A DNA stretch of 38,281 nt from Acetobacteraceae bacterium (lineage in GTDB: Bacteria; Pseudomonadota; Alphaproteobacteria; Acetobacterales; Acetobacteraceae). This document shows, in pieces, positions 3,628 to 35,141 of this stretch. The position numbers and the translations under genes were made by a program. The notes under the pieces were generated by a model. The model did no database searches and was not told the DNA's origin. It was given only the letters and a program-made list of their open reading frames with translations. The stretch lies in NCBI GenBank assembly GCA_043750075.1, contig JAYVCG010000169.1, positions 1 to 38,281 on the forward strand, given 5' to 3'. Each line of letters starts with the position of its first letter. Position 1 is the first letter of the stretch.

Positions 3628-3668
3628 CCAGCCCGCCGCCAGAGGAAGTCGGCCCTGTCCCCCCTCCC

Positions 3669-3900
3669 CCCAAAACCGACCCATCTTCCCCCCGCCCGTG
3701 AAACCCCCGAATAAGCTTCCCCACGGTAAGACACGGCGAGGGACACAAGGCATGGCGGGCACATGACATCGGTTGATCTGGCCGTACTGGGCGTGATGTT
3801 CCTCTCGGGGCTGGTCGCCCTCATGCGCGGCCTCGTCCGCGAGGTGCTCAGCGTCGCCGCCTGGCTGGGCGCCGCGGCGGTCGCCACCACCTTCATGCCC
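3669..3900 (+). repeat. Right copy of the ~230-bp direct repeat; supplies the upstream region and 5' end of intact cvpA
   Basis: Matches 579..812. Confidence 0.95.
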
Positions 3901-10720: not shown

Positions 10721-10797
10721 GGACCCGTAGCTCAGCTGGATAGAGCGTCGCCCTCCGAAGGCGAAGGTCGCACGTTCGAATCGTGTCGGGTCCGCCA
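10721..10797 (+). tRNA. tRNA-Arg(CCG)
   Basis: GGACCCG/CGGGTCC acceptor stem, TCGCC-CTCCGAA-GGCGA anticodon arm, TTCGAAT T-loop, CCA end. Confidence 0.97.
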
Positions 10798-10990
10798 ATC
10801 CTTTCAATGGCTTATTTGAATACAGCCATGATTGCGAAACCCTTTAGCCACCATATAGCTAGCAAAAGCTGGTGATATCCTTGCTTTCCGTTGTGGTCAT
10901 GGACGATCAGGGGACACGGATTATCTCTCACCAGCTTTAAAAGCATTGACGCGGTCGCACCCTCCTGGAACAGGTGATCGGATTGGAAGC

Positions 10991-12910
10991 GCTGGTTCCC
11001 TTGCATACGCGGGGAACACCATGCCGCTATCCTCACGGTCACGATTAGGTGCGGTTCATCCCCGCACACGCGGGGAACACTTTCTGCCGGGCCGGAGGGG
11101 AGCCGATTATTCCGGTTCATCCCCGCACACGCGGGGAACACGGATCGCGCGCCGCGGTTTCGCGGCCCGTGATCGGTTCATCCCCGCACACGCGGGGAAC
11201 ACGACCACCAACCATTCCCAATCGGCGGACGGCCCGGTTCATCCCCGCACACGCGGGGAACACGGTTTGACCCGGCGCCGGACCCGCGGCAGCGGCGGTT
11301 CATCCCCGCACACGCGGGGAACACGGCGTTCATCGCGTCTTGCCTGTGGTGAAACACGGTTCATCCCCGCACACGCGGGGAACACGCGGTCTATTGCGAG
11401 GATTGCGCCAGGGGGCTCGGTTCATCCCCGCACACGCGGGGAACACTTGGCGGGTTGGGCCGCGGGCGATTGGGTTTACGGTTCATCCCCGCACACGCGG
11501 GGAACACGAGGGAAAGTGGCGTTTGACCAAACAGCCCGACGGTTCATCCCCGCACACGCGGGGAACACCTCCAACCGCCCGTATCGTTTTCCAGGGCAGC
11601 CGGTTCATCCCCGCACACGCGGGGAACACTGCCCGGTCGCCGTTTCCGACAGGTTGCCCGGCGGTTCATCCCCGCACACGCGGGGAACACGTCTTCCAGG
11701 TCGCCTACGCCCCAGGGGAAACCGGTTCATCCCCGCACACGCGGGGAACACACGTTCCGCGGCGGAACGGGCGGCGCCCCCGACGGTTCATCCCCGCACA
11801 CGCGGGGAACACGATTGCAACAGCCAGTTCTCGGCGATCGCCGTCGGTTCATCCCCGCACACGCGGGGAACACGCCGGGAGGCAGGGGATCGAAACCCCG
11901 GCTGTCGGTTCATCCCCGCACACGCGGGGAACACTTCCAGGATTCCCATCTCCTGGAGCCGGTGCGCGGTTCATCCCCGCACACGCGGGGAACACGTTGG
12001 TCTCGTCAGGAAATACGAGCAAGGCGACGGTTCATCCCCGCACACGCGGGGAACACCGCGATCGTGCATTTCAGCGCCGGGACACTGACGGTTCATCCCC
12101 GCACACGCGGGGAACACCCTTTTCATGCTGCCGGGTCTGTTCCCGGCGGCGGTTCATCCCCGCACACGCGGGGAACACTGGTGTGGCTGAAAGAGGATCT
12201 GGACGCCTGGCGGTTCATCCCCGCACACGCGGGGAACACAGGTCGCCGCGTTCACAGAACTGGTGGACGGGCGGTTCATCCCCGCACACGCGGGGAACAC
12301 GCATCGCGCATGTCGAGGGCGCGGACACGCCACGGTTCATCCCCGCACACGCGGGGAACACGCGGCCTCGGCCCAAAGCTGATCCCGGTTGACCGGTTCA
12401 TCCCCGCACACGCGGGGAACACGGGGCGGGGGCGTCCTACGGCAAAAGGTGGGTCGGTTCATCCCCGCACACGCGGGGAACACATGAAACATCGATTTTC
12501 CTTTACGGTCGCAACCGGTTCATCCCCGCACACGCGGGGAACACGGCACCGATGCGGTATGCGTGGCGCTGGGCACCGGTTCATCCCCGCACACGCGGGG
12601 AACACGCGGGATCGATCCGGCCAAACGCCGCGGCGATCGGTTCATCCCCGCACACGCGGGGAACACGCCCGCCAGCCCAACTCAACATCAACAGGAGCCG
12701 GTTCATCCCCGCACACGCGGGGAACACACAGGAGCCTCCGCGATGTGGGAATACCGCGCCGGTTCATCCCCGCACACGCGGGGAACACCTGGCGGCAAGG
12801 ATTCGTCAGTCATGCTGCACCGGTTCATCCCCGCACACGCGGGGAACACCGCTGCCCGATGGCAGGGACGTGGGGGACATACGGTTCATCCCCGCACACG
12901 CGGGGAACAC
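10991..12910 (-). CRISPR. Type I-E CRISPR array: 31 repeats GTGTTCCCCGCGTGTGCGGGGATGAACCG plus one degenerate terminal repeat, 31 spacers of 32 bp
   Basis: 61-bp period from 11052 to 12882; degenerate repeat 10991..11019 at the leader-distal end; adjacent to cas2. Confidence 0.99.
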
Positions 12911-16848: not shown

Positions 16849-17369
16849 GGCGTGGTTTCCTCGGCATGCGGGGCGGCGGGCTGCCCGGCGTTCCAGTACT
16901 CGTAGACCCAGCGGGTCCGGCGTCCCTCGTCCCAGCGCGCCAGCGCGGCGGCGAGGTCGCGGACGTTCACCTTGTCCTTCGCCAGCGCGACCAGACGGCG
17001 GAAGGCGGTCAGCCGCTCGTCCGGCGTGGCGGCGTCGAGCAGGCGGCGGAAACGGAGAGGTTTCATCAGCGCCGTCTCGGGCGTGCCGGTGCCGTCCGGG
17101 CCGATGCGGCGGGCGACCGCCACGCCTGGATCGTCCTCCCGCACATGCGCCAGCACGGCGGCGGCGAGACCGGCGGCGGACAAATCATCCATGCCCTGTC
17201 CGCCGCCCAACCGGAACAACACGATCGCCGCTGGCTCCTGCATGGCCTCGGCGACCGTCGCGCAGCGGCGCAAACGCGCCAGCGCGGCGCGATCGCCTGG
17301 TTTTTTCTTGTCCGGATCGGGCTGGAGATCGCGCCACCACGCGACCATGCCCCCGCTGGCGAGGCTCAT
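16845..17369 (-). CDS. cse2: Cse2 (Cas11/CasB) small subunit
   Basis: DRAALARLRRC, LAHVRED, LRFRRLL, WVYEYW; lies between cas8e and cas7. Confidence 0.92.
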   Translation of the reverse strand: MSLASGGMVAWWRDLQPDPDKKKPGDRAALARLRRCATVAEAMQEPAAIVLFRLGGGQGMDDLSAAGLAAAVLAHVREDDPGVAVARRIGPDGTGTPETALMKPLRFRRLLDAATPDERLTAFRRLVALAKDKVNVRDLAAALARWDEGRRTRWVYEYWNAGQPAAPHAEETTP

Positions 17370-18982
17370 GTTCCCCTCCCTTTCGGTTTGACTTGTTTCG
17401 TTTCGGGGAGATTGAGATTGAGTTTCCCGAACAGATCGTTCCCCGCCTTCCCATATCCATGCAGCGCGAACCCCAGGAACTTCCGCGCCTGGGCGATGCG
17501 GGCGGCATTCTTCTGATCCGTGTCCGGGGCAAGCGGCGCCGCCTCATCGAACAAGGAAAACGCCAGGGGCCGCAGCATTTTCAGCCACTCCTCACGAGTC
17601 TTGCCCATGGTATCCGGTTGCCTCGCGACCTTTTCCAGGGCGGTGAAGAATGACGATTCCGTTTGTTCCCACAAACGTTCGCGCACGGTGTTGAACGGCA
17701 ATGCATCCGCCTTGACCGTCGCCCCTCGGTCGAACAGCGCGTCGCGGACGGCGTTGCGCGCCAGGCTGGCGACCTGATTGGCGGATTCGACAAGGGATTT
17801 GGCCAGATCATCCATGGCGTCCCTGGCCGCCTCCGTTGGCGCGGCGGGCAAGGGCAATTCGCTTTCGATGAAGGAACGCGCCTTCATGTTGTCCATGTCG
17901 AACCCGGCGGCCAGGATGCGGGCACGGGGATCACCGGCGTCACGGCCGCGAACATCGCGCCATTCGGGAACAACCGCCGCGGGGATGCGCGATCCATCCT
18001 CGCTTTTCAGCACCAGCCCGAGCCAGTCGCGATAGCCGATCCCCCCCGGCTGGGGATGCACCGGCAGCCATTCCTGGCTGTTCTTCGGCTGATAATGCGG
18101 CGTGAGCGGATGTATCCTGCCCCAGTCCGTGTAGTTCGCGCCATGCGGACGCTGCCGCCATGTCGCGACCTGAACGCTGTCCGGCTCCCCCGTCAGACCG
18201 CAGGCGCGCGGCGTTTCCAACGCCGTGAAATCCAGCCGGATGCGCCGCGGCATGCCCCACCAGCATTGCAGCCCGTGCGCGTTCTCCGGCGTCACCACAT
18301 GCCCGCTTTTGGAACCCGCGGCGGGCGCGAGCCAGGGGAACACGTGCGGGAAATCCCTGGATTTCAGGGCATTCTCCCGCGCCGGGACGTTGGCCCAGAG
18401 CAATTGCCACAGCGTCGGCGCGTCCCCCGGCACGATCAGGGTCACGAGTGGTCCGCCACCGCGCAACCCGGTGCGATTGCCCGCCCCCCCCGCCGGAGCC
18501 CAGGACTGGAAGGTGTACAGGACGATGGCGGCGGCGGGACGGCCAAGGGAGGCGACGCCATCGCGATGCACCAGCAGATCGGTGTTCTTGCTGATGGTGC
18601 TGCCGCCAGGCGCCTCGATCAACAGCCGCTCGACCGGTTCGGCGCCGGAGTCGAGGTCTTCCATGTCCTGCAAGAAACGAGGCCCGTTCCCATCGAGTTC
18701 GAACGCATGGGCGAAGGGCGCGAAAGCCTCGGTCAGTTGCTCGGGAGGGGGCGGGTCATGCCATTTCCTCAGCCACTCATCCCCATCCTCGGGTGGACAG
18801 AAAGTGGCGAGTGCGCCGGTCAGCAGTTCGAGCGTCGCGATCCGCAGATCAGGACGTGGCCAGTCGATGGCAATGATGGGGTTTTCGGCGTGATGTTCCG
18901 TGATCTGGGAAAGACGGATCGTATAGGGGCCGGAATCTCGGCGTAGGACGGGCAACCAGGAATCGGTCAGGAGATTGAGCAC
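17366..18982 (-). CDS. cas8e: Cas8e (Cse1/CasA); start likely GTG 18982
   Basis: AAGGAGGT RBS 5 nt before GTG; (V)LNLLTDSWLPV, PRFLQD, GNRTGLRGGGP, WGMPRRIRL, HPLTP. Confidence 0.93.
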   Translation of the reverse strand: MLNLLTDSWLPVLRRDSGPYTIRLSQITEHHAENPIIAIDWPRPDLRIATLELLTGALATFCPPEDGDEWLRKWHDPPPPEQLTEAFAPFAHAFELDGNGPRFLQDMEDLDSGAEPVERLLIEAPGGSTISKNTDLLVHRDGVASLGRPAAAIVLYTFQSWAPAGGAGNRTGLRGGGPLVTLIVPGDAPTLWQLLWANVPARENALKSRDFPHVFPWLAPAAGSKSGHVVTPENAHGLQCWWGMPRRIRLDFTALETPRACGLTGEPDSVQVATWRQRPHGANYTDWGRIHPLTPHYQPKNSQEWLPVHPQPGGIGYRDWLGLVLKSEDGSRIPAAVVPEWRDVRGRDAGDPRARILAAGFDMDNMKARSFIESELPLPAAPTEAARDAMDDLAKSLVESANQVASLARNAVRDALFDRGATVKADALPFNTVRERLWEQTESSFFTALEKVARQPDTMGKTREEWLKMLRPLAFSLFDEAAPLAPDTDQKNAARIAQARKFLGFALHGYGKAGNDLFGKLNLNLPETKQVKPKGRGT

Positions 18983-19079
18983 GAAATACCTCCTTTTTAA
19001 TCGAGAAATACGTTGAACAGGTAAGCCAAAGCATATAAGTTGCTTAAGGAAAATCTTCTGGTCAGAGATTGCTCCCCGA

Positions 19080-19109
19080 CTACGATAATCCACGGCATGT
19101 GTCCAACAT
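19080..19109 (-). other. Mini-ORF MLDTCRGLS with very strong RBS (candidate CreT-like toxin or leader ORF)
   Basis: AGAAAGGAGGT (19125-19115) lies 5 nt before ATG TTG GAC ACA TGC CGT GGA TTA TCG TAG. Confidence 0.45.
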
Positions 19110-19144
19110 GCTCAACCTCCTTTCTATCGTGATAGCGGGTTAAT

Positions 19145-19175
19145 GGAACCGGTGGGATCGCACCCCACCGGTTCC
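19145..19175. other. Perfect 12-bp stem-loop
   Basis: GGAACCGGTGGG-N7-CCCACCGGTTCC. Confidence 0.85.
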
Positions 19176-19234
19176 CAATAACTGACATGGCAAATGAGCA
19201 GGTGTCAATGATAAAAGAAGGGATGCAGAATTTT

Positions 19235-19268
19235 TCTCACCTATAAGAGTGACTAGACCACTTATAAA
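19235..19268 (-). promoter_or_regulatory. Target of the mini-array guide (AAG PAM 19263-19261) overlapping candidate promoter TTTATA-N17-TATAGG
   Basis: AAG|TGGTCTAGTCACTCTTATAGGTGAGA versus guide TGGTCGAGGCAATCTGACGGTGAAAA. Confidence 0.7.
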
Positions 19269-19317
19269 AAAAGTCATGCGAAGGAGGTAAGGGTTATCGA
19301 TAGGGTGGACAGACAAA

Positions 19318-19348
19318 GTGCTGCTTTCAGGATAACTGAAAACAGCAC
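19318..19348 (-). terminator. Probable intrinsic terminator after cas3 and the mini-array
   Basis: GTGCTG/CAGCAC plus TTTCAG/CTGAAA stem, followed by TTTGTCT on the minus strand. Confidence 0.55.
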
Positions 19349-19350
19349 CA

Positions 19351-19433
19351 ATCTTTATCCCCGCAAATGCGGGGAACACTTTTCACCGTCAGATTGCCTC
19401 GACCACGGTTCATCCCGCTGGCGCGGGTTCCTC
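19351..19433 (-). CRISPR. Degenerate single-spacer mini-array (CreR/CreA-like regulatory crRNA)
   Basis: GAGGAACCCGCGCCAGCGGGATGAACCG (19433-19406) + 26-nt spacer (19405-19380) + GTGTTCCCCGCATTTGCGGGGATAAAGAT (19379-19351). Confidence 0.85.
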
Positions 19434-22211
19434 TCCGATCCACGAAAGACCGGACCGCGCGTCATACCGGGCCACTCTCGCCGCCCCTGATTTCACGCGC
19501 GTCTCGAATCTATACCCTTCTCCATCGGGAACCAGCAAGGCCACCAGGATGGTGTCCAGCGCCTCCCGCTCCCATCGCCCCCAGTGTGCCCTGGCCGACA
19601 GCACGGCCGCCTCAAGCGCCGCCGGAGCCGGGCAGGCCGCGACCAGCCTCTGGGCCACCGAGACCTCGGACAAGGCCCAGGCGCGGCGCGGGTCCGGGTC
19701 GCGGGCATAGGGTACGACCCGCCCCTCCACCATCACCGCGAGGCGCAGCGTGACGTGCGGCTCATTCTCGATCCGGGTGGGGGTCTTCGTATCCGGGTTC
19801 CAGTCCCCGGTGTCCGTGGCATAGCCCTTGTCCAAATCCAGCAGGTTCTGTTTCGCCACGCATGTCAGGGACATCTCGCTGCCCTCGGCGGCGAGGGAGG
19901 ACCGCGCCAGGCCCGGCGGCACGGCACCCTCGGCTTCCCGGTCGAACGCTTCCTCGATCAGCGGCCGCATGTCGTCCGGGGTCACGATCGCGCCCCGCCG
20001 GAACACCGCGCGGGCGGAGCGCCACAGCAGCGCGTGATCGCGATACACCGCGCCCGTGCCGGGCAGGCTGGCCTTGATCCAGTCGCTGGCGGGATCGGCC
20101 ACGGGCTCCGGCGATACAACGAGCAGTTCGGGGCCTGACACCGGCCGGAGTCCGCGCGCATGCCGCCACAGCCGCCCGGCGCGCTGGATCAGCAGATCGG
20201 CGGGCGCCACATCCGTCACCATCAGGTCGAAATCGAGATCGAGGCTCTGCTCGACCACCTGGGTCGCGACCAGCACGCGGTTCCGCTCCGGTCTGGCTTC
20301 CCCACCCCTCCCGCTTCCGGCATCCCCATCCCTGGCCTCCCCGGCCCTGGGATCACCCGCGCGGGGAGGACCGAACACCCGCAGCACCTCGTCCTCGATC
20401 GCCAGCCGGTCCGCCATCGCGAAGCGCGCGTGGAACAACACCGCCTCGATCCCCTGGGCGCGCAGCATCCGGGCCGCGTCAATGGCATCGTTGACGGTGT
20501 TGCGTATCCAGACCACGGCGGCGCCCGCGGCATGGGCGGTGGCGATGCGCTCCACCGCCGCCGCGGCGTCCGCCAGCCGCGTCACCGTCACGCGCCGCGG
20601 CAATCCCTCCCGTGGAGCACAGTACGTTTCCTCCACACCGGCCGCGCCCGCGAGCGTGGCCAGCGGATACGCCCGCCGCTCCGGCCCCGGCGTCCACCCC
20701 GGCGCCCGGAGACCGCCGAGGAAGGCGTTCACCAATTTCTGGCGCGATTCAAACGGCAGTGTCGCCGACAGCAGGATCGCCGACCCGCCCAGGGCGGCGT
20801 GGAAGCGGAGGAGGGTGACGAGTTCCTCGCGCATGTAGGGGTCGAACGCATGCACCTCATCGACGATCAGCACCTTCCCCGTGAGACCGCGCAACCGCAG
20901 CGGCGCGTGCCGGACGGGAAGGACCGCCAGCAGCGCCTGATCCAGCGTCCCCACCCCCACTTGCGCCAGCAACGCGCGCCGCCGGTCGTGCGCCAGCCAC
21001 GCCGCGCAATGCGATTCGGCGGGTTCGTCCGCCGCGTCCACGGCGCCGCGCGGATCGGCCCCGCGTGGTCCAGCCTCACGCGGGCCAGCCTCACGCGGAT
21101 CGCCGTCGATCGCCGCCATGAAACGGGGGTTCAGCTCCGCGCGCCCGTGCGCCAGCGCCAGGGAGGGACGCGCCCCGGCGTCGAACAGCGCCTGATACGC
21201 CGTGGCGAGCCGCCTATGCATCGCGTTCGCCGTCGCCATGGTGGGCAGCGCCAGATACACGCCCTCGGCCCGGCCCGACGCCAGCAGGCGGTGGGCGAGC
21301 GTCACTGCCGCCTCGGTCTTGCCGCTACCGGTCAGATCCTCGATGACGGTGAGGCTCGGCCCCTCCGGCAACGGCACGGTTTCCGCCCATGCCTGGACCG
21401 GCGTGGGGAGCGTGATGCCGGGGAACAACCCGCGCAGCCCGGTGAACGGCGCCACGCGGGCATGCGCCAGCCCGGCCTCCGCCAGCGCCGCCGCCGCGCG
21501 CGGCAAGGCATGGCCCCAGAAATAAGCCCCCGGATCGGTGACGGCCACGGCGGACACATACGGAAACCATTGTTGGCGCGACCCGATCCAGTCCGCGAGC
21601 GTGGTCAGGCCCGCGAGCCGCCACGACAACAGCGGCACATCCTTTTCCCGCATGGGCCGGGGCCACGCCGGCGGACGGAACACCTCCCGCATCGCGTCCA
21701 GGAACTGGCCCGCCGCGTCGTGGCAGGCGGCACAGGCCACATCCGCGTCCAACCGCGCGGGGATCTCCGTCGGCCGTCCGTGATGTCCCGCGACGGCCCG
21801 CCAGAGCCTGTCACGGTCGCTTGGCTTCCAGACCGGCCCCGCCGCCGCGCGCTCCGGCAGCAGATCGGTCAGCCGCGGCGCGAGCGGCCTCGACAGGAAA
21901 TACGCCCCCACCGCGTCGTGGCGCGGCCAGGATCGTTTCTCCATCGGCCACGCCCCCAGCCACTCCACCGGCCAGTGCTCCCGCGCCTGGGCCTGGAACG
22001 CGCGCGAGAACTTGCCGATGTCATGCAGCGCGACGAGGAACCCGAGCATCCTGGGGTCCAGGCGCCCGCCCTCACGGCCCGCCAGCAGCACCGCCACCGC
22101 CGCGACATCGAGGCAATGCGCCACCAGCGGATGCGCCTCTTCCGTGGCTCCCTTCTCAGGCTGGGCCTTACCCCAGAATTGGGCCAGCACTGGCATGATG
22201 TGTTCCCCCAT
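19410..22211 (-). CDS. cas3: Cas3 HD nuclease-helicase
   Basis: FWGKA, HCLDVAA, HDIGK, GHHG, ADWIGS, TGSGKTE, DEVH, SAT, QRAGRLWRH. Confidence 0.98.
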   Translation of the reverse strand: MGEHIMPVLAQFWGKAQPEKGATEEAHPLVAHCLDVAAVAVLLAGREGGRLDPRMLGFLVALHDIGKFSRAFQAQAREHWPVEWLGAWPMEKRSWPRHDAVGAYFLSRPLAPRLTDLLPERAAAGPVWKPSDRDRLWRAVAGHHGRPTEIPARLDADVACAACHDAAGQFLDAMREVFRPPAWPRPMREKDVPLLSWRLAGLTTLADWIGSRQQWFPYVSAVAVTDPGAYFWGHALPRAAAALAEAGLAHARVAPFTGLRGLFPGITLPTPVQAWAETVPLPEGPSLTVIEDLTGSGKTEAAVTLAHRLLASGRAEGVYLALPTMATANAMHRRLATAYQALFDAGARPSLALAHGRAELNPRFMAAIDGDPREAGPREAGPRGADPRGAVDAADEPAESHCAAWLAHDRRRALLAQVGVGTLDQALLAVLPVRHAPLRLRGLTGKVLIVDEVHAFDPYMREELVTLLRFHAALGGSAILLSATLPFESRQKLVNAFLGGLRAPGWTPGPERRAYPLATLAGAAGVEETYCAPREGLPRRVTVTRLADAAAAVERIATAHAAGAAVVWIRNTVNDAIDAARMLRAQGIEAVLFHARFAMADRLAIEDEVLRVFGPPRAGDPRAGEARDGDAGSGRGGEARPERNRVLVATQVVEQSLDLDFDLMVTDVAPADLLIQRAGRLWRHARGLRPVSGPELLVVSPEPVADPASDWIKASLPGTGAVYRDHALLWRSARAVFRRGAIVTPDDMRPLIEEAFDREAEGAVPPGLARSSLAAEGSEMSLTCVAKQNLLDLDKGYATDTGDWNPDTKTPTRIENEPHVTLRLAVMVEGRVVPYARDPDPRRAWALSEVSVAQRLVAACPAPAALEAAVLSARAHWGRWEREALDTILVALLVPDGEGYRFETRVKSGAARVARYDARSGLSWIGEEPAPAG

Positions 22212-22355: not shown

Positions 22356-24008
22356 TCACCCCCTCCCCTCGCCAGATCGTTCAGCGGCGATGTGGATGCC
22401 TTCGACCCGTCTCTCCGTCTCGATTTCCTCATCGATCTCGCTGTCCGCGTGCGACGCATGCGGCCGGTGCGCGTCGCGGTGCCGCCGCGCGGTGACGACG
22501 CCGGAGACCAGCGCCAGCACCGTCGCCACCGCCACTGGCAGCCATTTCGGACCGTGATGCGGCAGCGCCTCCAGCACCTCCTTCAACGCGGTGTGCGTGG
22601 TCAGGAACGTCAGCATCCCGGCGAACAGGCCGACCACCGGAGCGTGAGAGCGCTCGCGCCGGTGGTGGCTGGCGGCGTCGCGCGCCCGGTCCTGGGCCGC
22701 GCGCTCCAGCGCCAGATCGCGCAGCCGGTCCTCGGCCTGGGCCACGTCGTCCATGATCTTGCGGGTCAGCGCCTCGATGCGCAGGCCGTGGCGCAGCGCC
22801 TCGTGGAACAGGTTATGCGCCGTCACGTGGCTGACCAGCGGCACCCGCACCCGCAGGCGCAGGGTCAGGAACCGGTCCACCAGGCGCCGCAGCGCCTCGG
22901 GCCGCCGCGACAGCGCGCCCTGGCCAAGGTCCAGCAGCCGCGCGTGCTCGTGATACGCCAGGATCACCAGCGGCAGGTAGATGCGCCGCACCCGGTCGTG
23001 GAACCCGGCCGCCAGGAAGGTCGAACCGGCGGCGGCAAGGGTGGCGGCGCCCTCCAGGCTCGCGGCGTGGATCACATCGTCGAACGCGCGGATCACCGCG
23101 CCGCCCAGACGGAAATCCGGCCCTGGGTGGTAGGCGTCGGTGTAATGACGGCTGAGCCGCCAGGCCGCGACCTCGGCGTCCGCAGGCAGCGCGGGCAGCA
23201 GCGCGAAGCAGTAGGCATAGACCCGCTCCGGCCGGCACCTGGCGCGGGCGAGCAGCGCGCCGGTCAGGTCGCGGATGGTGAAACGGTGGAGCGCGGGCTC
23301 CTCGCAGGCCCAGGCCAGGGTGCCGCGCCGCTCGGCGTGCGCCAGGATGTGCATGATCTCCTGGAGCAAGGGCAGGGTGATCCGGTCCATCTCCACCCGG
23401 ACCTCGATCAGCGCGAGGCCGAAATCGTCCGACAGCCGCAGCAGCGCCAGACCGGCGATCCGCAGCGTCACCGCCTCGGGCACCGCGCCGCCATGTGTCA
23501 GCGCGAGCCGCGCCCGGTGCTCCGCGCCCAGGGGCAGGAGCAGGCCGCGTCCGGCGCGGAAGCCGGGGATGCGCCTGGGATCGCCCTCGGGCCGCGCCCA
23601 CTCGCCGTTGACGACGGCGAGGCCGCGCGCGTTGAGGCGCAGGCAGGGCGGCGGCGTGGCCTCCGTGCCGCGTGGATGCAGCGCGGCGAGCACGGCGGGA
23701 TGCGGGGTCTCGGGCAGGTCGAGATGCCCCGCCTCGAACAGAAGCCGCGCCGGTCCCCTGGGGTTGGCGCGGCTGGGGTGGATCAGGCCGGCCATCGCCT
23801 CCGGCGGCAGGGCCTCCACCGCCAGTGTTTCGAGTTCCCAGGCGGCCGCGTCGTTGTAACCGGGGAAATCCAGCAGCAGGTGGATGGAATGATCCCGCAC
23901 CGTGCCGGTGGAGGTACTGGGCGGTGACTCTGACGGGTCCATCACGGCGGCCTGTTCCCTTTGCTCGACGGCGTGTGCCCGCGGGCACGGGCGGCGCGGA
24001 GGCGTCAT
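22356..24008 (-). CDS. CorA-like protein with C-terminal helical stalk and two TM helices (alternative start 23942)
   Basis: YLPLVILAYHEHARLLDL..FLTLRLRVRVPLVSHVTAHNLFHEALRHGLRIEALTRKIMDDV..LRD, then hydrophobic VVGLFAGMLTFLT and WLPVAVATVLALVSGVV; resembles defence-associated divergent CorA proteins. Confidence 0.55.
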   Translation of the reverse strand: MTPPRRPCPRAHAVEQREQAAVMDPSESPPSTSTGTVRDHSIHLLLDFPGYNDAAAWELETLAVEALPPEAMAGLIHPSRANPRGPARLLFEAGHLDLPETPHPAVLAALHPRGTEATPPPCLRLNARGLAVVNGEWARPEGDPRRIPGFRAGRGLLLPLGAEHRARLALTHGGAVPEAVTLRIAGLALLRLSDDFGLALIEVRVEMDRITLPLLQEIMHILAHAERRGTLAWACEEPALHRFTIRDLTGALLARARCRPERVYAYCFALLPALPADAEVAAWRLSRHYTDAYHPGPDFRLGGAVIRAFDDVIHAASLEGAATLAAAGSTFLAAGFHDRVRRIYLPLVILAYHEHARLLDLGQGALSRRPEALRRLVDRFLTLRLRVRVPLVSHVTAHNLFHEALRHGLRIEALTRKIMDDVAQAEDRLRDLALERAAQDRARDAASHHRRERSHAPVVGLFAGMLTFLTTHTALKEVLEALPHHGPKWLPVAVATVLALVSGVVTARRHRDAHRPHASHADSEIDEEIETERRVEGIHIAAERSGEGRG

Positions 24009-24101: not shown

Positions 24102-27100
24102 CTACCGGTTCCACAACCGCCGCCACCATCCTGGGCGGCGCCCGGCCTCCCCCGCCAGCATCCGCCGCGCGAAAGCGGGCGCGTCTTCCCAGGGCGGCGG
24201 GAACTGATCCCTCAGCAACACCCGCAGCGCGTCCCACAACGTCAAGGCGCGCGCGAAATCCGCCTTGTCCCCGCTCGCGATCCCCCGGTTCACATACGCC
24301 CGCGCGAGATCGTTGCGCCAGGGGATGGGCCAGTCCGCGCCCAGCGTGTCGCGCAACGCCTCCCTCAGCGCGATCGCGCGGTCGTAATCCCCGATCGCCG
24401 CCGCCGCGCCAAAACCAGGGGCGGACTGTTTGGCGTTGCCCCGGTTCATGAAGGCGTTCGCGAGATCGTTGCGCCAGGGGATGGGCCAGTCCGCGCCCAG
24501 CGAGTCGCGCAGTGTCTCCATCAGCGCGACCGCGCGGTCGTAGTCCGCGATCGCCGCCGCCGCGCCGAAACCAGGGGTGTCCTGTTTGGCGTTGCCCCGG
24601 TTCACGAAGGCGCCCGCCAGATCGTTGCGCCAGGGGATGGGCCAGTCCGCGCCCATCGTGTCGCGCAACGCCTCCCTCAGCGCGATCGCGCGGTCGTAAT
24701 CCGCGATCGCCGCGGCCGCGCCGAAACCAGGGGCGGACTGTTTGGCCACGCCCCGGTTCATGAAGGCGGAAGCGAGATCGTTGTCGCGCGTCGGCGCCCC
24801 ATCGGCTGGGCCGCCTCCGTGATGCAGACAGGCGATCAATGTGTTATACCAAGTGACCTGACGCGCGCTCGCGGCAATTTGAGTGCCATGCCGCGCCTCG
24901 ATCCATTGCGCGACATCACACAGCGGGACGGTCGCGTAGCGGTGCCGCTGTGGATCGGAGCCCGCCTGGTCAACCAGCGCGGGCAGCAGGGGGAAAACCT
25001 CCCGCAGCCTGTGCTCGGCGTCCGGTTCCGGGTTGGTTTCCGCCACCATGTCCGCGTGCAACGTCTCCACGGCGTCCAGGCCCAGGGACACCATGCGCGC
25101 GGTGGCGCGGGCGACGGCGGCGGAGGACGCGGCGTGCTCCGCCAGGGCGGGCGCGAACCCCTTCAGGCCGAGGCGGTAGCGTGCCACGCCGCTCCCGCCG
25201 CGCCAGATCCACAAGGCGCCTTGCAGCAGCAGCAGCGCCTCCATCAGCGCGACGCCATAGCGGCGGCCCGCCGCGTCGGCGGGTTCGTCCAGCAGCGCGG
25301 TCTCGGCCAGCAGGCCGATCGACACGCCGGGCCAGAGGACGGGCAGCACGTCCAGCGGCAGGCCCGTCGCCGCGTCCACCAGTGGCGCCCCCGTCATCGC
25401 GTCCCGTGGCGCGGTGTCCGGGTTGAACGTCCGGGCATGGGCGAGGTCCGCGGCCGCCAGCCCCGCCAGCACGCCCAGCAGATCGGCGGCCAGCTTGGCG
25501 CCGAAGCGCGTCTCCAGCCCGGCGATGAAACGGCTGTATATCTCGGTGCCCGAGCCCAGGGCGGCCACCTCGTCCGCCGTCAGGACACGGAGTTGCCCGA
25601 TCAGCAGGCTGAACAGCGAGAAGCGGGAATCGGCCTGCTCGATCAGCGCCGCCACGCGCGTCACCGCCGCCAGGGCGCCGAGATTGACGGTGGCGTATTC
25701 GCGCAGCAAGGCGAGATAGCCGGGATCGTCCAGCCGCCCCTCGTGGATGCCGGAGACGCCACCGGTCAGCGGACCGGCCAGCGCGGGGCCGAGCCAGGAC
25801 GGCGCCTGGTCGCTGGCCTGTTCCGCCACCACCGGGCGGGAGGTCAGCAGCACATACAGCCCCGGCGTCAGATCGGCGGCGCGCGGCAGCAACAGCAGAA
25901 TGCTGCCGTCCACGCGCGGCTCCCCGGCGGGATCGTCCTCCTCCGGACGCGGTTCCACGGCCTCGTCGAGACCATCCACGATCACCAGCAGCCGCGGATC
26001 GGGCCGTGGCGATAGCGCGCGCCACCGGTCCAGCCAGGCCACGAACGCGGCGGGACGGTCCTGGGCGTTCAGCACCTCGGCGGGCGTGGGCAGAAGCTGG
26101 TTGGCGCGTTCGGGAATGCCGAGGGCGGCGCGCAGATCGCCCGCCAGGCCTTGCAGGAAGGCGGCCTGATTCTCCCGGAACTCCTGCCTGCAGAAGAACG
26201 CCACCACGCCGACGCCGCCGCCCAGGGCGGTGTCCTCCGGCCCGCGCGGCGCCGCGATCGGCTCCTCCGGCAGCAGCCCCGCCAGTCCCTGGGCGAAGGT
26301 GGTCTTGCCGACATGCGCCGGGGCCTGGAGCCAGAACACGCCGCGATCGTGCCCCGCGATGAACGCCGCGAGCGGATCGCGCAGATGGCCCGGCGACTGA
26401 TACCGCTGGTCGATGCGCATCCGGTCCAGATGCAGCATCGCCGCGCCGCTGGTCAGCCGCTCCGCCGGGCTTTGTGGAGGAATGGCCTCGCCGATCGCCG
26501 CGAACTCGGCACGCAGTCCCGGATCGTCGGAGTCGTTGATGCGTCCGCGGTGCCCGTTGGCGTAATCGAGGAACCAGCTTCGCCAGTGCCGCCCGCGCTC
26601 GGCGCTGTCGTAGAAGAACACGTCGCGGCGGCCGCATTCCTGGCAGACGCGCGCCGCGACCATCGGCCCCAGATCCAGGACAAGCCCAGGGCCGGTGAGC
26701 CGCACCGGCAGGACGCGGCCGCCGTGGTCATGGTGGCGCGGATCGCCGCGCCAGGCGTCCAGCGCCGCCGCCCCGGTCAGGTCAATCACATCCTCCCCAT
26801 CCTGGGCTTGCAGGCGCAGGCCCTCCCAGGGGTTTTCGGCGCACGCCGCCGCCAGACCGTCGAGCAGGGGGACCGGCCTGTCCCGGACGCCCTGGGGTAG
26901 TGGATCGCCCGGTCCTCGCGCGGCGTACCAGGCGACGAGGGCGGCGGTCTCCGCCGGGTTCGCGCGCATCGCGCCATGGCCGAGATACTGGTTGCGCGCG
27001 GCGGCGAGGCTCTCCAGCGCGGCGCGGAAGCGGTGCCCGTTGCTGAACAGCCGCGCCAGTCCGGCGAGCGGGCCGTTGGGTTCGGTCTGGCTCAGCCGCT

Positions 27101-27749
27101 CCGCGGCGGTGCGCGCCAGATCGTTCCAGTTGCCGCCGCTGGCCTTGGCGACCATCACGCGCATCGTGTGCGCGTCCGGCCCGCCCAGGGTGATGAGGCG
27201 GCGGGCGAGGATGCTGGCGGGGAGCTTGAGCATCGCCTCGCCGGTGTCGCGCAACTGGAGCAACGCCCCCTCCGGCGAGGGCACGCCGCCGCGCCCGTGG
27301 CCGTCGAGCGTGTCCGCCAGGGCCCGGACCTCATGCGCGACGGGCGCTGGCCATTGAGTCAGCAGCGCGTCAAACCACGGCGCGGCGCGGAGGCGGGCGG
27401 CGGCGGCGTGGCAGAGACGCCGTGCCTCGGTCAGGTCGGCACTGGTGGTCAGGCGGACGGAGAGTCCGGCCTCGATGGTCTTGACGCGCGCGATCGCCTG
27501 TTCCTCGTCCTCCGCCGACAGGCGCGCGAGCTGGAGGACGAGGCCCGCCTGCCGCACGAACGCCTCCCTTCCGCCCGCCTCGGTGTCGCGGCGGGTCTGG
27601 TCGAGGGCGTCCAGGACGGTGGCGAGATCGGTCAGGCGCGTGGTCCGATGGTGCGGCGGTGATCGTATGTGGTCCGAAATGGGAGGGGAAGCGGTGGCGG
27701 GATGGCGGCGCCCTGACGGTGCCCCGCCAGGACGTGGAGCGGCGAGCAT
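24102..27749 (-). CDS. STAND/NACHT-like NTPase with N-terminal HEPN-like and CxxC region and C-terminal TPRs (start uncertain)
   Basis: RNQYLGH (26996-26976), CQEC, Walker A APAHVGKT (26324-26301), Walker B LLVIVDGLDE, LLTSRP, TPR-like NDLA.AF.NRG..K..AIADYDRAIAL repeats. Confidence 0.8.
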   Translation of the reverse strand: MLAAPRPGGAPSGRRHPATASPPISDHIRSPPHHRTTRLTDLATVLDALDQTRRDTEAGGREAFVRQAGLVLQLARLSAEDEEQAIARVKTIEAGLSVRLTTSADLTEARRLCHAAAARLRAAPWFDALLTQWPAPVAHEVRALADTLDGHGRGGVPSPEGALLQLRDTGEAMLKLPASILARRLITLGGPDAHTMRVMVAKASGGNWNDLARTAAERLSQTEPNGPLAGLARLFSNGHRFRAALESLAAARNQYLGHGAMRANPAETAALVAWYAARGPGDPLPQGVRDRPVPLLDGLAAACAENPWEGLRLQAQDGEDVIDLTGAAALDAWRGDPRHHDHGGRVLPVRLTGPGLVLDLGPMVAARVCQECGRRDVFFYDSAERGRHWRSWFLDYANGHRGRINDSDDPGLRAEFAAIGEAIPPQSPAERLTSGAAMLHLDRMRIDQRYQSPGHLRDPLAAFIAGHDRGVFWLQAPAHVGKTTFAQGLAGLLPEEPIAAPRGPEDTALGGGVGVVAFFCRQEFRENQAAFLQGLAGDLRAALGIPERANQLLPTPAEVLNAQDRPAAFVAWLDRWRALSPRPDPRLLVIVDGLDEAVEPRPEEDDPAGEPRVDGSILLLLPRAADLTPGLYVLLTSRPVVAEQASDQAPSWLGPALAGPLTGGVSGIHEGRLDDPGYLALLREYATVNLGALAAVTRVAALIEQADSRFSLFSLLIGQLRVLTADEVAALGSGTEIYSRFIAGLETRFGAKLAADLLGVLAGLAAADLAHARTFNPDTAPRDAMTGAPLVDAATGLPLDVLPVLWPGVSIGLLAETALLDEPADAAGRRYGVALMEALLLLQGALWIWRGGSGVARYRLGLKGFAPALAEHAASSAAVARATARMVSLGLDAVETLHADMVAETNPEPDAEHRLREVFPLLPALVDQAGSDPQRHRYATVPLCDVAQWIEARHGTQIAASARQVTWYNTLIACLHHGGGPADGAPTRDNDLASAFMNRGVAKQSAPGFGAAAAIADYDRAIALREALRDTMGADWPIPWRNDLAGAFVNRGNAKQDTPGFGAAAAIADYDRAVALMETLRDSLGADWPIPWRNDLANAFMNRGNAKQSAPGFGAAAAIGDYDRAIALREALRDTLGADWPIPWRNDLARAYVNRGIASGDKADFARALTLWDALRVLLRDQFPPPWEDAPAFARRMLAGEAGRRPGWWRRLWNR
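24290..24785 (-). repeat. Tandem 156-bp (52-aa) TPR-like repeats, three full units plus a partial fourth
   Basis: GATCGTTGCGCCAGGGGATGGGCCAGTCCGCGCCC recurs at about 24308, 24464 and 24620. Confidence 0.9.
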
Positions 27750-27949: not shown

Positions 27950-28002
27950 GCGTCGCCCTCCGAAGGCGAAGGTCGCACGTTCGAATCGTGTCGGGTCCGC
28001 CA
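27950..28002 (+). repeat. att-like duplicate of the tRNA-Arg 3' 53 bp
   Basis: GCGTCGCCCTCCGAAGGCGAAGGTCGCACGTTCGAATCGTGTCGGGTCCGCCA identical to 10745..10797; tRNA 5' part absent. Confidence 0.95.
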
Positions 28003-28281
28003 GTGATTTCAGCACACTCCCCATCACGCTGGCCGCGATGTGACTGGCTCCATGCTCCCCGTATGTGTCCAACGCGGACCCCGGCACCTCACCCGCGCGG
28101 GGTGTGGGCCACATGCCACTCACCAACGCGAATCCGATGCCTGCTTTCCCGCGGACAGGGAACCCCCGCCCCGCCCCATGCGCGTGGAAAGAGGCCGGTC
28201 CGCCCAAAGGGAACCCCGCATTCCGCCGACGCCCGTGGCGTGCCAGTCTGAGGGACGAACATCCTGAAAGGCCCCCTCACC

Positions 28282-34602: not shown

Positions 34603-34767
34603 CTCACCACGGAGTTCACGGAGAACCACGAAGGGGCACGGAGAAGGGAAAACCAGGCCCTTTCTCACTGGCACGGGATTTCACTGGCACATCCGGTGCC
34701 GCTTTCCCCTGGTTTCAGGGAAGAAGCTCCGTGCGTCTCCGTGGTTCTCCGTGACCTCCGTGGTGAG
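34603..34767. repeat. Palindromic MITE/REP-like element A
   Basis: CTCACCACGGAGTTCACGGAGAACCACG..CACGGAG / CTCCGTG..CTCCGTGGTTCTCCGTGACCTCCGTGGTGAG; ~40-bp imperfect inverted ends. Confidence 0.8.
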
Positions 34768-34872
34768 AAGCTTTCCTGTCCTTTCCACCCGGCATGGCAT
34801 CCATCCGGGCGCACCCGCGAAGAACCGCGAGGTTCTTTCTTTGGTTCGTGTCCGTGCTCAGCACCGCCAGGC

Positions 34873-35039
34873 TTCATTCCAGAGGGCCAGAGGGCCAGAG
34901 AACCAGAGGGGAACACTACCCATGGGTTCGTGCGTCTGCCCTGTTGATGCACGGCCGCTGCGCGGCGGAGGAAGGCACGGTTCAGCCTGAAGCTTCTCTG
35001 GTTCTCTGGTTCTCTGGTTCTCTGGTCCTCTGAAATGAA
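34873..35039. repeat. Palindromic MITE/REP-like element B
   Basis: TTCATTCCAGAGGGCCAGAGGGCCAGAGAACCAGAG / (CTCTGGTT)3CTCTGGTCCTCTGAAATGAA inverted ends built from 8-nt units. Confidence 0.8.
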
Positions 35040-35141
35040 TCCTTCGCGGTGTTTCCCCACGGCGCTGGCCCTGCCGGTTCCCGTGCGGAAAACATGACAT
35101 GCGCCGCATCAGGGGAACGCGCCCCGCTCCACCCCGCGCGC

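Follow-up and report, generated by a model that had tools for sequence, protein, structure and literature searches.

A two-repeat CRISPR guide and a rare-codon minigene in the cas3-cas8e gap of an Acetobacteraceae type I-E locus: a likely CreA-type repressor and its candidate toxin

Between cas3 and cas8e of a type I-E CRISPR-Cas locus from an Acetobacteraceae bacterium, two degenerate repeats enclose a short guide that partially matches a site upstream of cas8e, and a minigene of nine codons with a rare codon lies downstream of that site. (The window, throughout, is the whole stretch of DNA that was analysed, 38,281 nucleotides.) The reading that we favour, to which we give a probability of roughly 0.55 and which rests on sequence comparison, is that the guide is likely a CreA-type repressor of a promoter driving first a CreT-like minigene toxin that would jam translation and then the Cascade genes. 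The guide on its own is a member of a common, published class. What is new to the literature that we searched is the presence in Alphaproteobacterial I-E loci of apparently CRISPR-repressed minigenes that conserve the rarity of codons 7-8 but not the amino acids they encode. Also new would be the joining of a same-strand CreA-like guide, fused to the end of cas3, to a conserved minigene with rare codons, probably a toxin.

The locus in the window is complete and lies entirely on the minus strand, with cas3 followed by an AT-rich gap of 427 nt, cas8e, cas11, cas7, cas5, cas6e, cas1, cas2 and the array (Table 1). NCBIfam profiles identify casA, casB, casC, casD, casE, cas1e and cas2e, and the Cascade and Cas6e genes are intact. 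The host assembly is 4.26 Mb, 65% GC and 76% complete; the closest named relatives of the window's Cas8e are from Acetobacteraceae, and within the genus a cas8e match was found in 3 of the 76 other genomes. Positions 19214-19397 and 19338-19692 are also covered by contigs from a second study with 0 differences from the window, so the mini-array region is not an assembly artefact. (Note that the list of open reading frames places ORFs of 63 aa and 79 aa over the mini-array and gap region.)

Table 1. Features of the type I-E locus and of its cas3-cas8e gap (positions in the window)
Feature	Coordinates	Strand	Basis or remark
cas3, 933 aa	19410..22211	-	ORF; NCBIfam cas3_core and cas3_HD above cut-off; frame ends ...PAPAG*
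Candidate internal promoter for the guide inside cas3 (tentative), TTGCTG-N18-TATAGA	19509..19538	-	position kept in L001, L002 and L009
PsiR1: 5-bp hairpin (19427-19414) and exact 8-nt 5' handle ATGAACCG (19413-19406)	19406..19434	-	sequence, fold
Pseudo-spacer (guide), 26 nt, compared with 32 nt for array spacers	19380..19405	-	sequence
PsiR2: full 7-bp repeat hairpin (3' handle), decayed 3' end	19351..19379	-	23/29 identical to array repeat; fold z -3.9
Terminator-like hairpin, 14 pairs, T-rich tail, directly after PsiR2	19307..19349	-	1 found, 0.8 expected in region shuffles
AAG PAM	19261..19263	-	sequence
Guide target, positions 1-17, starting at 19260	19244..19260	-	13/15 informative positions match
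Promoter of the original prediction (possible), TTTATA-N17-TATAGG	19240..19268	-	hexamers 4/6 each; overlaps target
TTGACA, likely -35 of the repressed promoter	19203..19208	-	TTGAC conserved; -10 at 17 nt (TCAGTT) poor
14-pair hairpin, likely 5' end of the leader RNA	19145..19175	-	z -3.9
Strong Shine-Dalgarno (SD) GAAAGGAGGT	19115..19124	-	-12.4 kcal/mol
Mini-ORF, CreT-like candidate: 9 codons, MLDTCRGLS*, ATG start, TTA at codon 8 (19088-19086)	19080..19109	-	sequence, relatives
Hairpin directly after the mini-ORF stop	19061..19080	-	z -2.3
cas8e, first gene of cas8e-cas11-cas7-cas5-cas6e-cas1-cas2	17366..18982	-	GTG start 18982; own SD 18998-18990
Canonical CRISPR array with 31 repeats of 29 nt, all identical, and spacers of 32 nt	11052..12910	-	sequence

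The guide and its co-variation with its target

As had been predicted from the window alone, two degenerate I-E repeats flank a 26-nt spacer, the upstream one (PsiR1) with a hairpin and the exact 5' handle and the downstream one (PsiR2) with the 3' handle. PsiR1 and the array repeat are equal over their last 11 nt (13 of 29 positions are identical in an ungapped alignment), and the PsiR1 hairpin is one base pair shorter than that of the array repeat; in several relatives it is weak. The terminator-like hairpin that follows PsiR2 is missing from the two closest aligned relatives. The AAG-flanked target about 120 bp downstream also bears out the predicted pairing: guide positions 1-5, 7-8, 10-11, 13-15 and 17 match, and positions 6, 9, 12, 16, 18 and 19 do not. 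A match of 13/15 at an AAG site in the 386-nt intergenic region was reached by 1 of 20,000 shuffled guides, and by 2 of 3,000 when no PAM was required. The re-pairing of GGTGA with a one-base shift, also part of the original prediction, is really there in the sequence; it is probably irrelevant, since Cascade reads its target in a fixed 6-nt register.

Among the 8 genomic sites with AAG and the seed, one besides the guide's own target reaches 13/15 (G000:C665:2557-2576, L226), and it lies inside what we take, by eye, to be an rmlB-like gene, upstream of an rmlA-like gene. We regard this second site as a probable chance match, for it falls in coding sequence and is only a little unusual when compared to shuffled guides (50 of 3,000 gave a comparable site).

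Cas8e loci (designated by L numbers) were gathered from genomes, metagenomes and the family. Those with cas3 directly upstream numbered 191, of which 148 were non-redundant, and the 96 with a gap of 60-900 nt were scanned (48 loci with shorter and 4 with longer gaps fell outside this filter). Candidates with two repeats, 52 in all, were chosen by repeat motif alone, the target not being used; the motif missed at least one visible mini-array (L214) and took in one false one (L206). When PAM-flanked sites in each locus's own gap were scored, 49 of the 52 cognate guide-target pairs reached at least 12/15, compared with 1 of 2,652 non-cognate pairs. (Note that one of the 49, L038, is a palindromic self-match, and that the loci are kin rather than independent. 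Genus and class searches added one duplicate, G475, equal to L009 over the aligned region, and four distant loci recognized by eye, all outside the counts.) The guide and target thus co-vary across homologous cas3-cas8e gaps, as the original prediction had proposed to check.

The predicted AAG PAM and unpaired sixth positions recur among these relatives. Guide positions 6, 12 and 18 match in 12, 12 and 15 of 51 pairs, respectively, and the remaining positions up to 15 match in 44-51 of 51, except for position 9 (39); positions 16 and 17 match in 36 and 34 pairs. Positions 9 and 16, at which the window has mismatches, rank with the least conserved outside the sixth positions. The PAM was AAG at 45 of 51 best targets when eight PAMs were allowed, and spacer lengths cluster near 20-21, 26 and 32-33 nt, in steps of six (the detector reads 1 nt long). 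Six-step spacing, mismatches at 6, 12 and 18 and AAG together are the signature of Cascade binding and of the published crlRNA class. Moreover, what was found in the window is what is expected of CreR/CreA: two degenerate repeats, a 5' handle in the first and a 3' hairpin in the second, with a partial PAM-proximal match, a cognate PAM and tolerated mismatches at 6, 12 and 18. The guide is therefore very probably real and of the known CreR/CreA (crlRNA) class, and we are similarly confident that it directs repression by Cascade. The core of the original prediction, a crRNA-like guide that places Cascade upstream of cas8e with no cutting by Cas3, is strongly supported by the co-variation and by published I-E CreR.

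That the repeats are instead the relic of a dead array, and that the match survives from a local duplication and regulates nothing, we consider very improbable. Real arrays do sit between cas3 and cas8e in L031 and L032, but their canonical spacers score just 7-10, and across unrelated guide sequences the mismatches focus on positions 6, 12 and 18 while the PAM persists, a pattern that drift would not produce.

Full canonical arrays on the cas3 strand, between cas3 and cas8e or just upstream of cas8e, were seen in L118 and L234 as well as in L031 and L032, and such arrays are a possible source of the same-strand mini-arrays. Among the other unusual loci, L038 and L233 have guides whose first 18 nt are a perfect palindrome with AAG on the opposite strand, such that each guide best matches its own gene. 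In L200 an inverted copy of the target comes after it; and in L026, where the minigene has lost its stop (53 codons), the best target lies on the other strand from the one used by the rest of the same-strand loci.

The CreR of Salmonella enterica I-E represses about 8.6-fold (Liu et al., bioRxiv 10.1101/2023.03.10.532045) and, like the element in the window, consists of two degenerate repeats with a 5' handle in PsiR1 and a 3' handle in PsiR2, with a partial match at an AAG site upstream of casA/cas8e. It differs in having 15 consecutive matches, compared with 13/15 with internal mismatches, and in being described as having no toxin, whereas the window has a conserved minigene after the promoter. 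Mini-arrays for crlRNAs lie between cas3 and cas8 in 19% of 3,741 I-E loci (Shmakov et al., PMC10120712) and resemble ours in location, PAM and sixth-position mismatches; however, those examined in that study run opposite to cas3, whereas the mini-arrays of the window and 33 loci run with it. These 33 same-strand loci are mostly from Alphaproteobacteria, and their mini-arrays often overlap the cas3 stop. Five taxon names gave no match in two supplements of PMC10120712. (Related literature comprises bioRxiv 10.1101/2024.10.29.618823, 10.1101/2024.12.27.630466 and 10.1101/2024.01.05.574328, and PMC12737573.)

Rfam returned no match for 18800-19700 at E up to 1, a plasmid search returned no match, and blastn against phages returned 11 weak repeat-like matches (E 0.08-0.3). 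A phage copy of the guide (Cracr) was considered and rejected: the one exact handle-plus-seed match in viral contigs lies inside an ORF of 504 aa with no second repeat, and so was judged to be chance.

The likely promoter and the rare-codon minigene downstream of the target

The original prediction had the target lie over a promoter, TTTATA-N17-TATAGG. Both hexamers are present, but this geometry occurs in 1 of 32 same-strand loci, the window itself, and a sigma-70 scan of 18900-19700 scored no promoter. (The 32 loci used here and for the TTGAC counts leave out L026, where the target lies on the opposite strand.) A TTGAC is found downstream of the target in 22 of these 32, compared with 2 of 32 in an upstream control, and in 20 of the 22 it lies at +20 to +37 from the target; in the window it is at +53, with 52 nt from the target start to TTGACA compared with 19-36 in most relatives. 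The window's TTGACA stands 26 nt before the strong hairpin, an arrangement shared by several relatives. Because TTGAC lies downstream of the target in most loci, the target more likely sits upstream of the -35 element, over an AT-rich UP-like tract. Such a placement would resemble that in Pseudomonas aeruginosa I-F, where the target is about 30 bp upstream of -35, and that in Citrobacter rodentium, where it covers a predicted UP element.

The mini-ORF had been mentioned in passing; it is present, and the analysis extends it to a conserved element made up of a hairpin, an SD, a short ORF and a second hairpin (Table 1). Relatives share this plan with unrelated sequence and have rare codons at positions 7-8. 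Rare codons were defined as the genome's four rarest, CTA, TTA, AGA and ATA, using a crude ORF set of this genome; they occur at 1.3-3.7 per 1,000 in the cas genes of relatives. TTA is the second-rarest codon in the crude count, and GGA ranks 27 of the counted codons. The minigene was tested in 27 long-leader loci (6 short-leader loci were left out), the strongest SD-start combination being picked automatically, and an SD of -6 kcal/mol or stronger was found in 22 of the 27. The four rarest codons occupy codon 7 in 9/19 and codon 8 in 13/19, compared with 4/108 for codons 2-6; they make up 30 of 174 codons in frame versus 7 and 9 out of frame. Base shuffles gave a mean of 11.5 rare codons, and none of 3,000 reached 30. 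As a genome background, 16 of 460 short ORFs with a strong SD have a rare codon at position 7 or 8. Once the pattern had been noticed, further same-strand loci were fetched, and 5 of these 9 have rare codons at 7-8.

Close relatives carry AGA AGA (Acetobacter farinalis and Gluconacetobacter takamatsuzukensis), ATA ATA (Komagataeibacter melomenusus) or TTA, and the amino acid at 7-8 thus swaps among Arg, Leu and Ile while rarity is kept. Because close relatives switch in this way, codon rarity rather than the peptide is what is maintained, and the comparison shows selection for rare codons at positions 7-8. Tandem copies include AGA AGA in L018, ATA ATA in L015 and TTA TTA in L028. Tandem rarity is not universal: two rare codons occupy 7-8 in 7 of 14 minigene loci, L009 has its tandem at 4-5, and the window has a single TTA preceded by the non-rare GGA. 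As exceptions, L231 has a guide, SD, mini-ORF and hairpins but none of the four codons, L089 has ACA ACA, and L098 and L011 depart from the 7-8 position. The flanking hairpins were examined in 21 hand-picked homologues; the upstream region had z below -1.5 in 18 of 21 when a wide span was folded (7 of 21 when the span cut the hairpin), and the downstream hairpin in 14 of 21, compared with 2 of 21 coding controls and 8 of 21 for the next span downstream.

The minigene occurs in 14 of 33 same-strand guide loci, in 0 of 18 antisense guide loci and in 1 of 37 guide-less loci. (A 15th match, in L046, was dropped as it falls in a spacer.) Guides thus often occur alone and the minigene almost never does, the one case being L012; this is the pattern that a toxin-antitoxin pair gives. 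In L012 (3503-4110) an antidote and Fic/Doc pair occupies the guide's slot in the cas3-cas8e gap. The gap of L184 holds a pair that looks by eye like DUF1778 and GNAT, and that is probably a protein toxin-antitoxin pair.

A model of the minigene built from sequence alone (R1; 32 candidates scored per genome) returned from 151 family genomes 4 loci, all training loci or duplicates, and 3 weak matches in ordinary coding genes. From 88 sources it returned, apart from the window and two loci nearly identical to training loci, one locus that had been kept out of the training, L028. ARAGORN did not find tRNA-Leu(TAA) or tmRNA in the 76% complete assembly.

Toxin, leader or remnant

Since the promoter region holds a conserved CreT-like minigene, the guide looks like CreA, an antitoxin, rather than plain CreR. 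For the family as a whole we hold it quite probable that the minigene is translated and acts through its slow codons, and we lean, with less assurance, towards a toxin rather than a tuner. According to the toxin reading, Cas6e would cut both hairpins to yield an RNA of about 55 nt (8 + 26 + 21) starting AUGAACCG at 19413. Cascade would bind with it through the seed and about 17 nt, too little for R-loop locking and Cas3 recruitment, and would block RNA polymerase upstream of TTGACA (19208). Loss of Cascade, inhibition by an anti-CRISPR or competition from crRNAs would open the promoter, which would both restock Cascade and release the minigene RNA. The strong SD would then load ribosomes, and these would pause at TTA (in relatives at AGA or ATA), tying up a rare tRNA as well as ribosomes and slowing growth. 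Such a toxin, if real, would make the CRISPR system hard to lose.

The minigene resembles CreT of archaea. The CreT/CreA systems of Haloarcula hispanica (AGA AGA) and Halobacterium hubeiense (AUA AUA), both type I-B, sequester tRNA (PMC8501985). They share with the window a strong initiation signal, a rare-codon mini-ORF, a downstream stem-loop and a two-repeat guide, and their homologues naturally swap AGA and AUA, as the window's family swaps rare codons. However, the rare codons in the haloarchaeal examples given there are always tandem and come directly after, or within 3 codons of, the start, whereas the window's family is bacterial and type I-E, places them at codons 7-8, includes TTA, is tandem in half of cases and has a 5' hairpin. 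Downstream of the guide-targeted promoter the window has the strong initiation signal, the mini-ORF and the stable stem-loop of a tRNA-sequestering CreT, but GGA TTA in place of two consecutive rare codons; although it would work like CreT, we therefore do not file it under that class.

The CreT of P. aeruginosa I-F (bioRxiv 10.64898/2026.06.02.729485) resembles the window in its cas3-cas8 gap, its guide of 20 or 26 nt and its SD, mini-ORF and hairpin, yet it uses proline codons (Pro-Pro) rather than rare ones, in a 15-nt ORF. The I-E CreT of C. rodentium (PMC12055562) is, similarly, a Cascade-repressed toxin in the cas3-casA gap; unlike the window's minigene it is a 96-bp ORF with no rare codons that needs in-frame translation, and its CreA lies on the opposite strand. 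The CreT of Acinetobacter is a structured RNA (PMC10097628). No rare-codon CreT in bacteria or in I-E was found in the literature searched, although supplementary tables outside that search may list such loci, nor was a CreT/CreA tied to Acetobacteraceae, Alphaproteobacteria or TTA.

The minigene might instead be a cis-acting leader, with the guide acting as CreR: ribosomes pausing at codons 7-8, on the 5' arm of the hairpin, would let the supply of rare tRNA tune either the stability of the cas8e operon mRNA or its read-through. We find this rather unlikely, but several observations speak for it. Slow codons at a fixed place a few nucleotides before a conserved hairpin suit a mechanism that depends on where the ribosome stalls, and single rare codons are common (7 of 14 loci). 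Furthermore, in E. coli extracts AGAAGA minigenes weaken as they lengthen, with +7/+8 the weakest position when tRNA is added, which makes 7-8 a weak site for tRNA sequestration; in that study all minigenes inhibited fully when no tRNA was added (PMC2490762). In the window the minigene SD is also able to form a duplex of 13-14 bp with the cas8e start, whose accessibility rises from 0.27 to 0.52 when initiation is modelled. This pairing is, however, unconserved in relatives, where cognate duplexes have a mean rank of 0.52 among non-cognate ones, and we rejected translational coupling of the two starts. A modelled stalled ribosome opened the cas8e start in none of 20 loci, and in the window no U-tract terminator follows the hairpin and none lies between minigene and cas8e, such that no conserved switch to a terminator or a downstream ribosome-binding site was found. 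Moreover, a guide would not be required for an attenuator to work, and still the minigene almost never lacks one.

More doubtful still is that the guide is a plain CreR of autorepression and that the minigene in this particular genome is a decayed, harmless remnant of a once-toxic element. Same-strand guides do exist with no minigene (19 of 33 loci), and the window has one TTA, a longer distance from target to promoter and a poor -10. But its start, length, codon-8 TTA and both hairpins are intact, and among 16 comparable sites in the genome its SD is the strongest and its upstream hairpin the most stable.

If toxic, the minigene would give bacteria an equivalent of the tRNA-sequestering CreT of archaea, and leucine (TTA) would join the list of sequestered tRNAs. 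The family also offers a natural series, single or tandem and Arg, Leu or Ile, in the culturable and harmless genera Acetobacter, Gluconacetobacter and Komagataeibacter, with which, given toxicity, one could ask how such RNAs stop translation. Similarity searches do poorly at detecting CreT genes, and the rare-codon pattern supplies a rule by which they can be sought in sequence.

Overlap with the end of cas3 and the surrounding island

PsiR1 lies inside the coding end of cas3, whose last codons and stop TGA (19412-19410) fall within it, an overlap that the original prediction left unremarked. In the window and in 14 of 33 same-strand loci, cas3 ends on the TGA that the handle contains. Cas6e is expected to cut 8 nt from the repeat end, and this cut falls inside the cas3 ORF in 16 of 33 loci. 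As PsiR1 carries the stop codon, processing of the guide would cut that codon off; cleavage would fall one base inside the final sense codon and give a cas3 mRNA that lacks a stop, and the level of Cas6e might throttle Cas3. The overlap thus predicts a post-transcriptional link from Cas6e to Cas3, for which no precedent was found in the literature searched. Translating ribosomes could mask the PsiR1 hairpin.

The overlap may be selected, or it may reflect compaction only, the latter view being favoured by the fact that the handle happens to contain TGA and that 17 of 33 loci stop earlier. On a Cas8e tree of 64 rows, from which antisense and distant loci were left out, the stop-overlap state is scattered, with 14 changes for 14 rows. 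The PsiR1 hairpin is part of the cas3 mRNA with or without an internal promoter. The candidate internal promoter lies at -104/-105 from PsiR1 in L001, L002 and L009, and the mean best promoter score was 9.8 compared with 8.2 for controls in 33 guide loci, and 8.8 compared with 8.2 in 28 guide-less loci.

One could go further and suppose that a single element wires three controls, namely repression of Cascade transcription by the guide, throttling of Cas3 by Cas6e, and a minigene whose rare codons, at a fixed place and exchangeable among AGA, ATA and TTA, read or drain rare tRNA pools. This combination seems improbable to us; if true, CRISPR output or growth arrest would be coupled to a tRNA supply that phages and anticodon nucleases disturb.

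Several further observations concern the surroundings of the locus. A 62-nt direct repeat (95%) at 10745-10806 and 27950-28011 is the 3' end of tRNA-Arg(CCG) (10721-10797), and it brackets the CRISPR locus with its upstream genes, which make up a 17-kb island integrated at this tRNA; none of the scanned ORFs was identified as an integrase. Upstream of cas3 the island encodes a protein of 1215 aa (24102-27749, minus strand) that shows a weak NACHT-like match and contains three internal repeats of 156 nt, and one of 550 aa (22356-24008, minus strand) with no match in Pfam, NCBIfam or PADLOC, both of which are candidate defence genes. Within the array, at 12728-12667, the end of one spacer (GCTCCTGT) reappears at the start of the next. 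Two long inverted repeats with arms of 40-41 nt, made of short internal repeats, lie at 34603-34767 and 34869-35043, and a 234-nt duplication, 97% identical, occupies 579-812 and 3667-3900.
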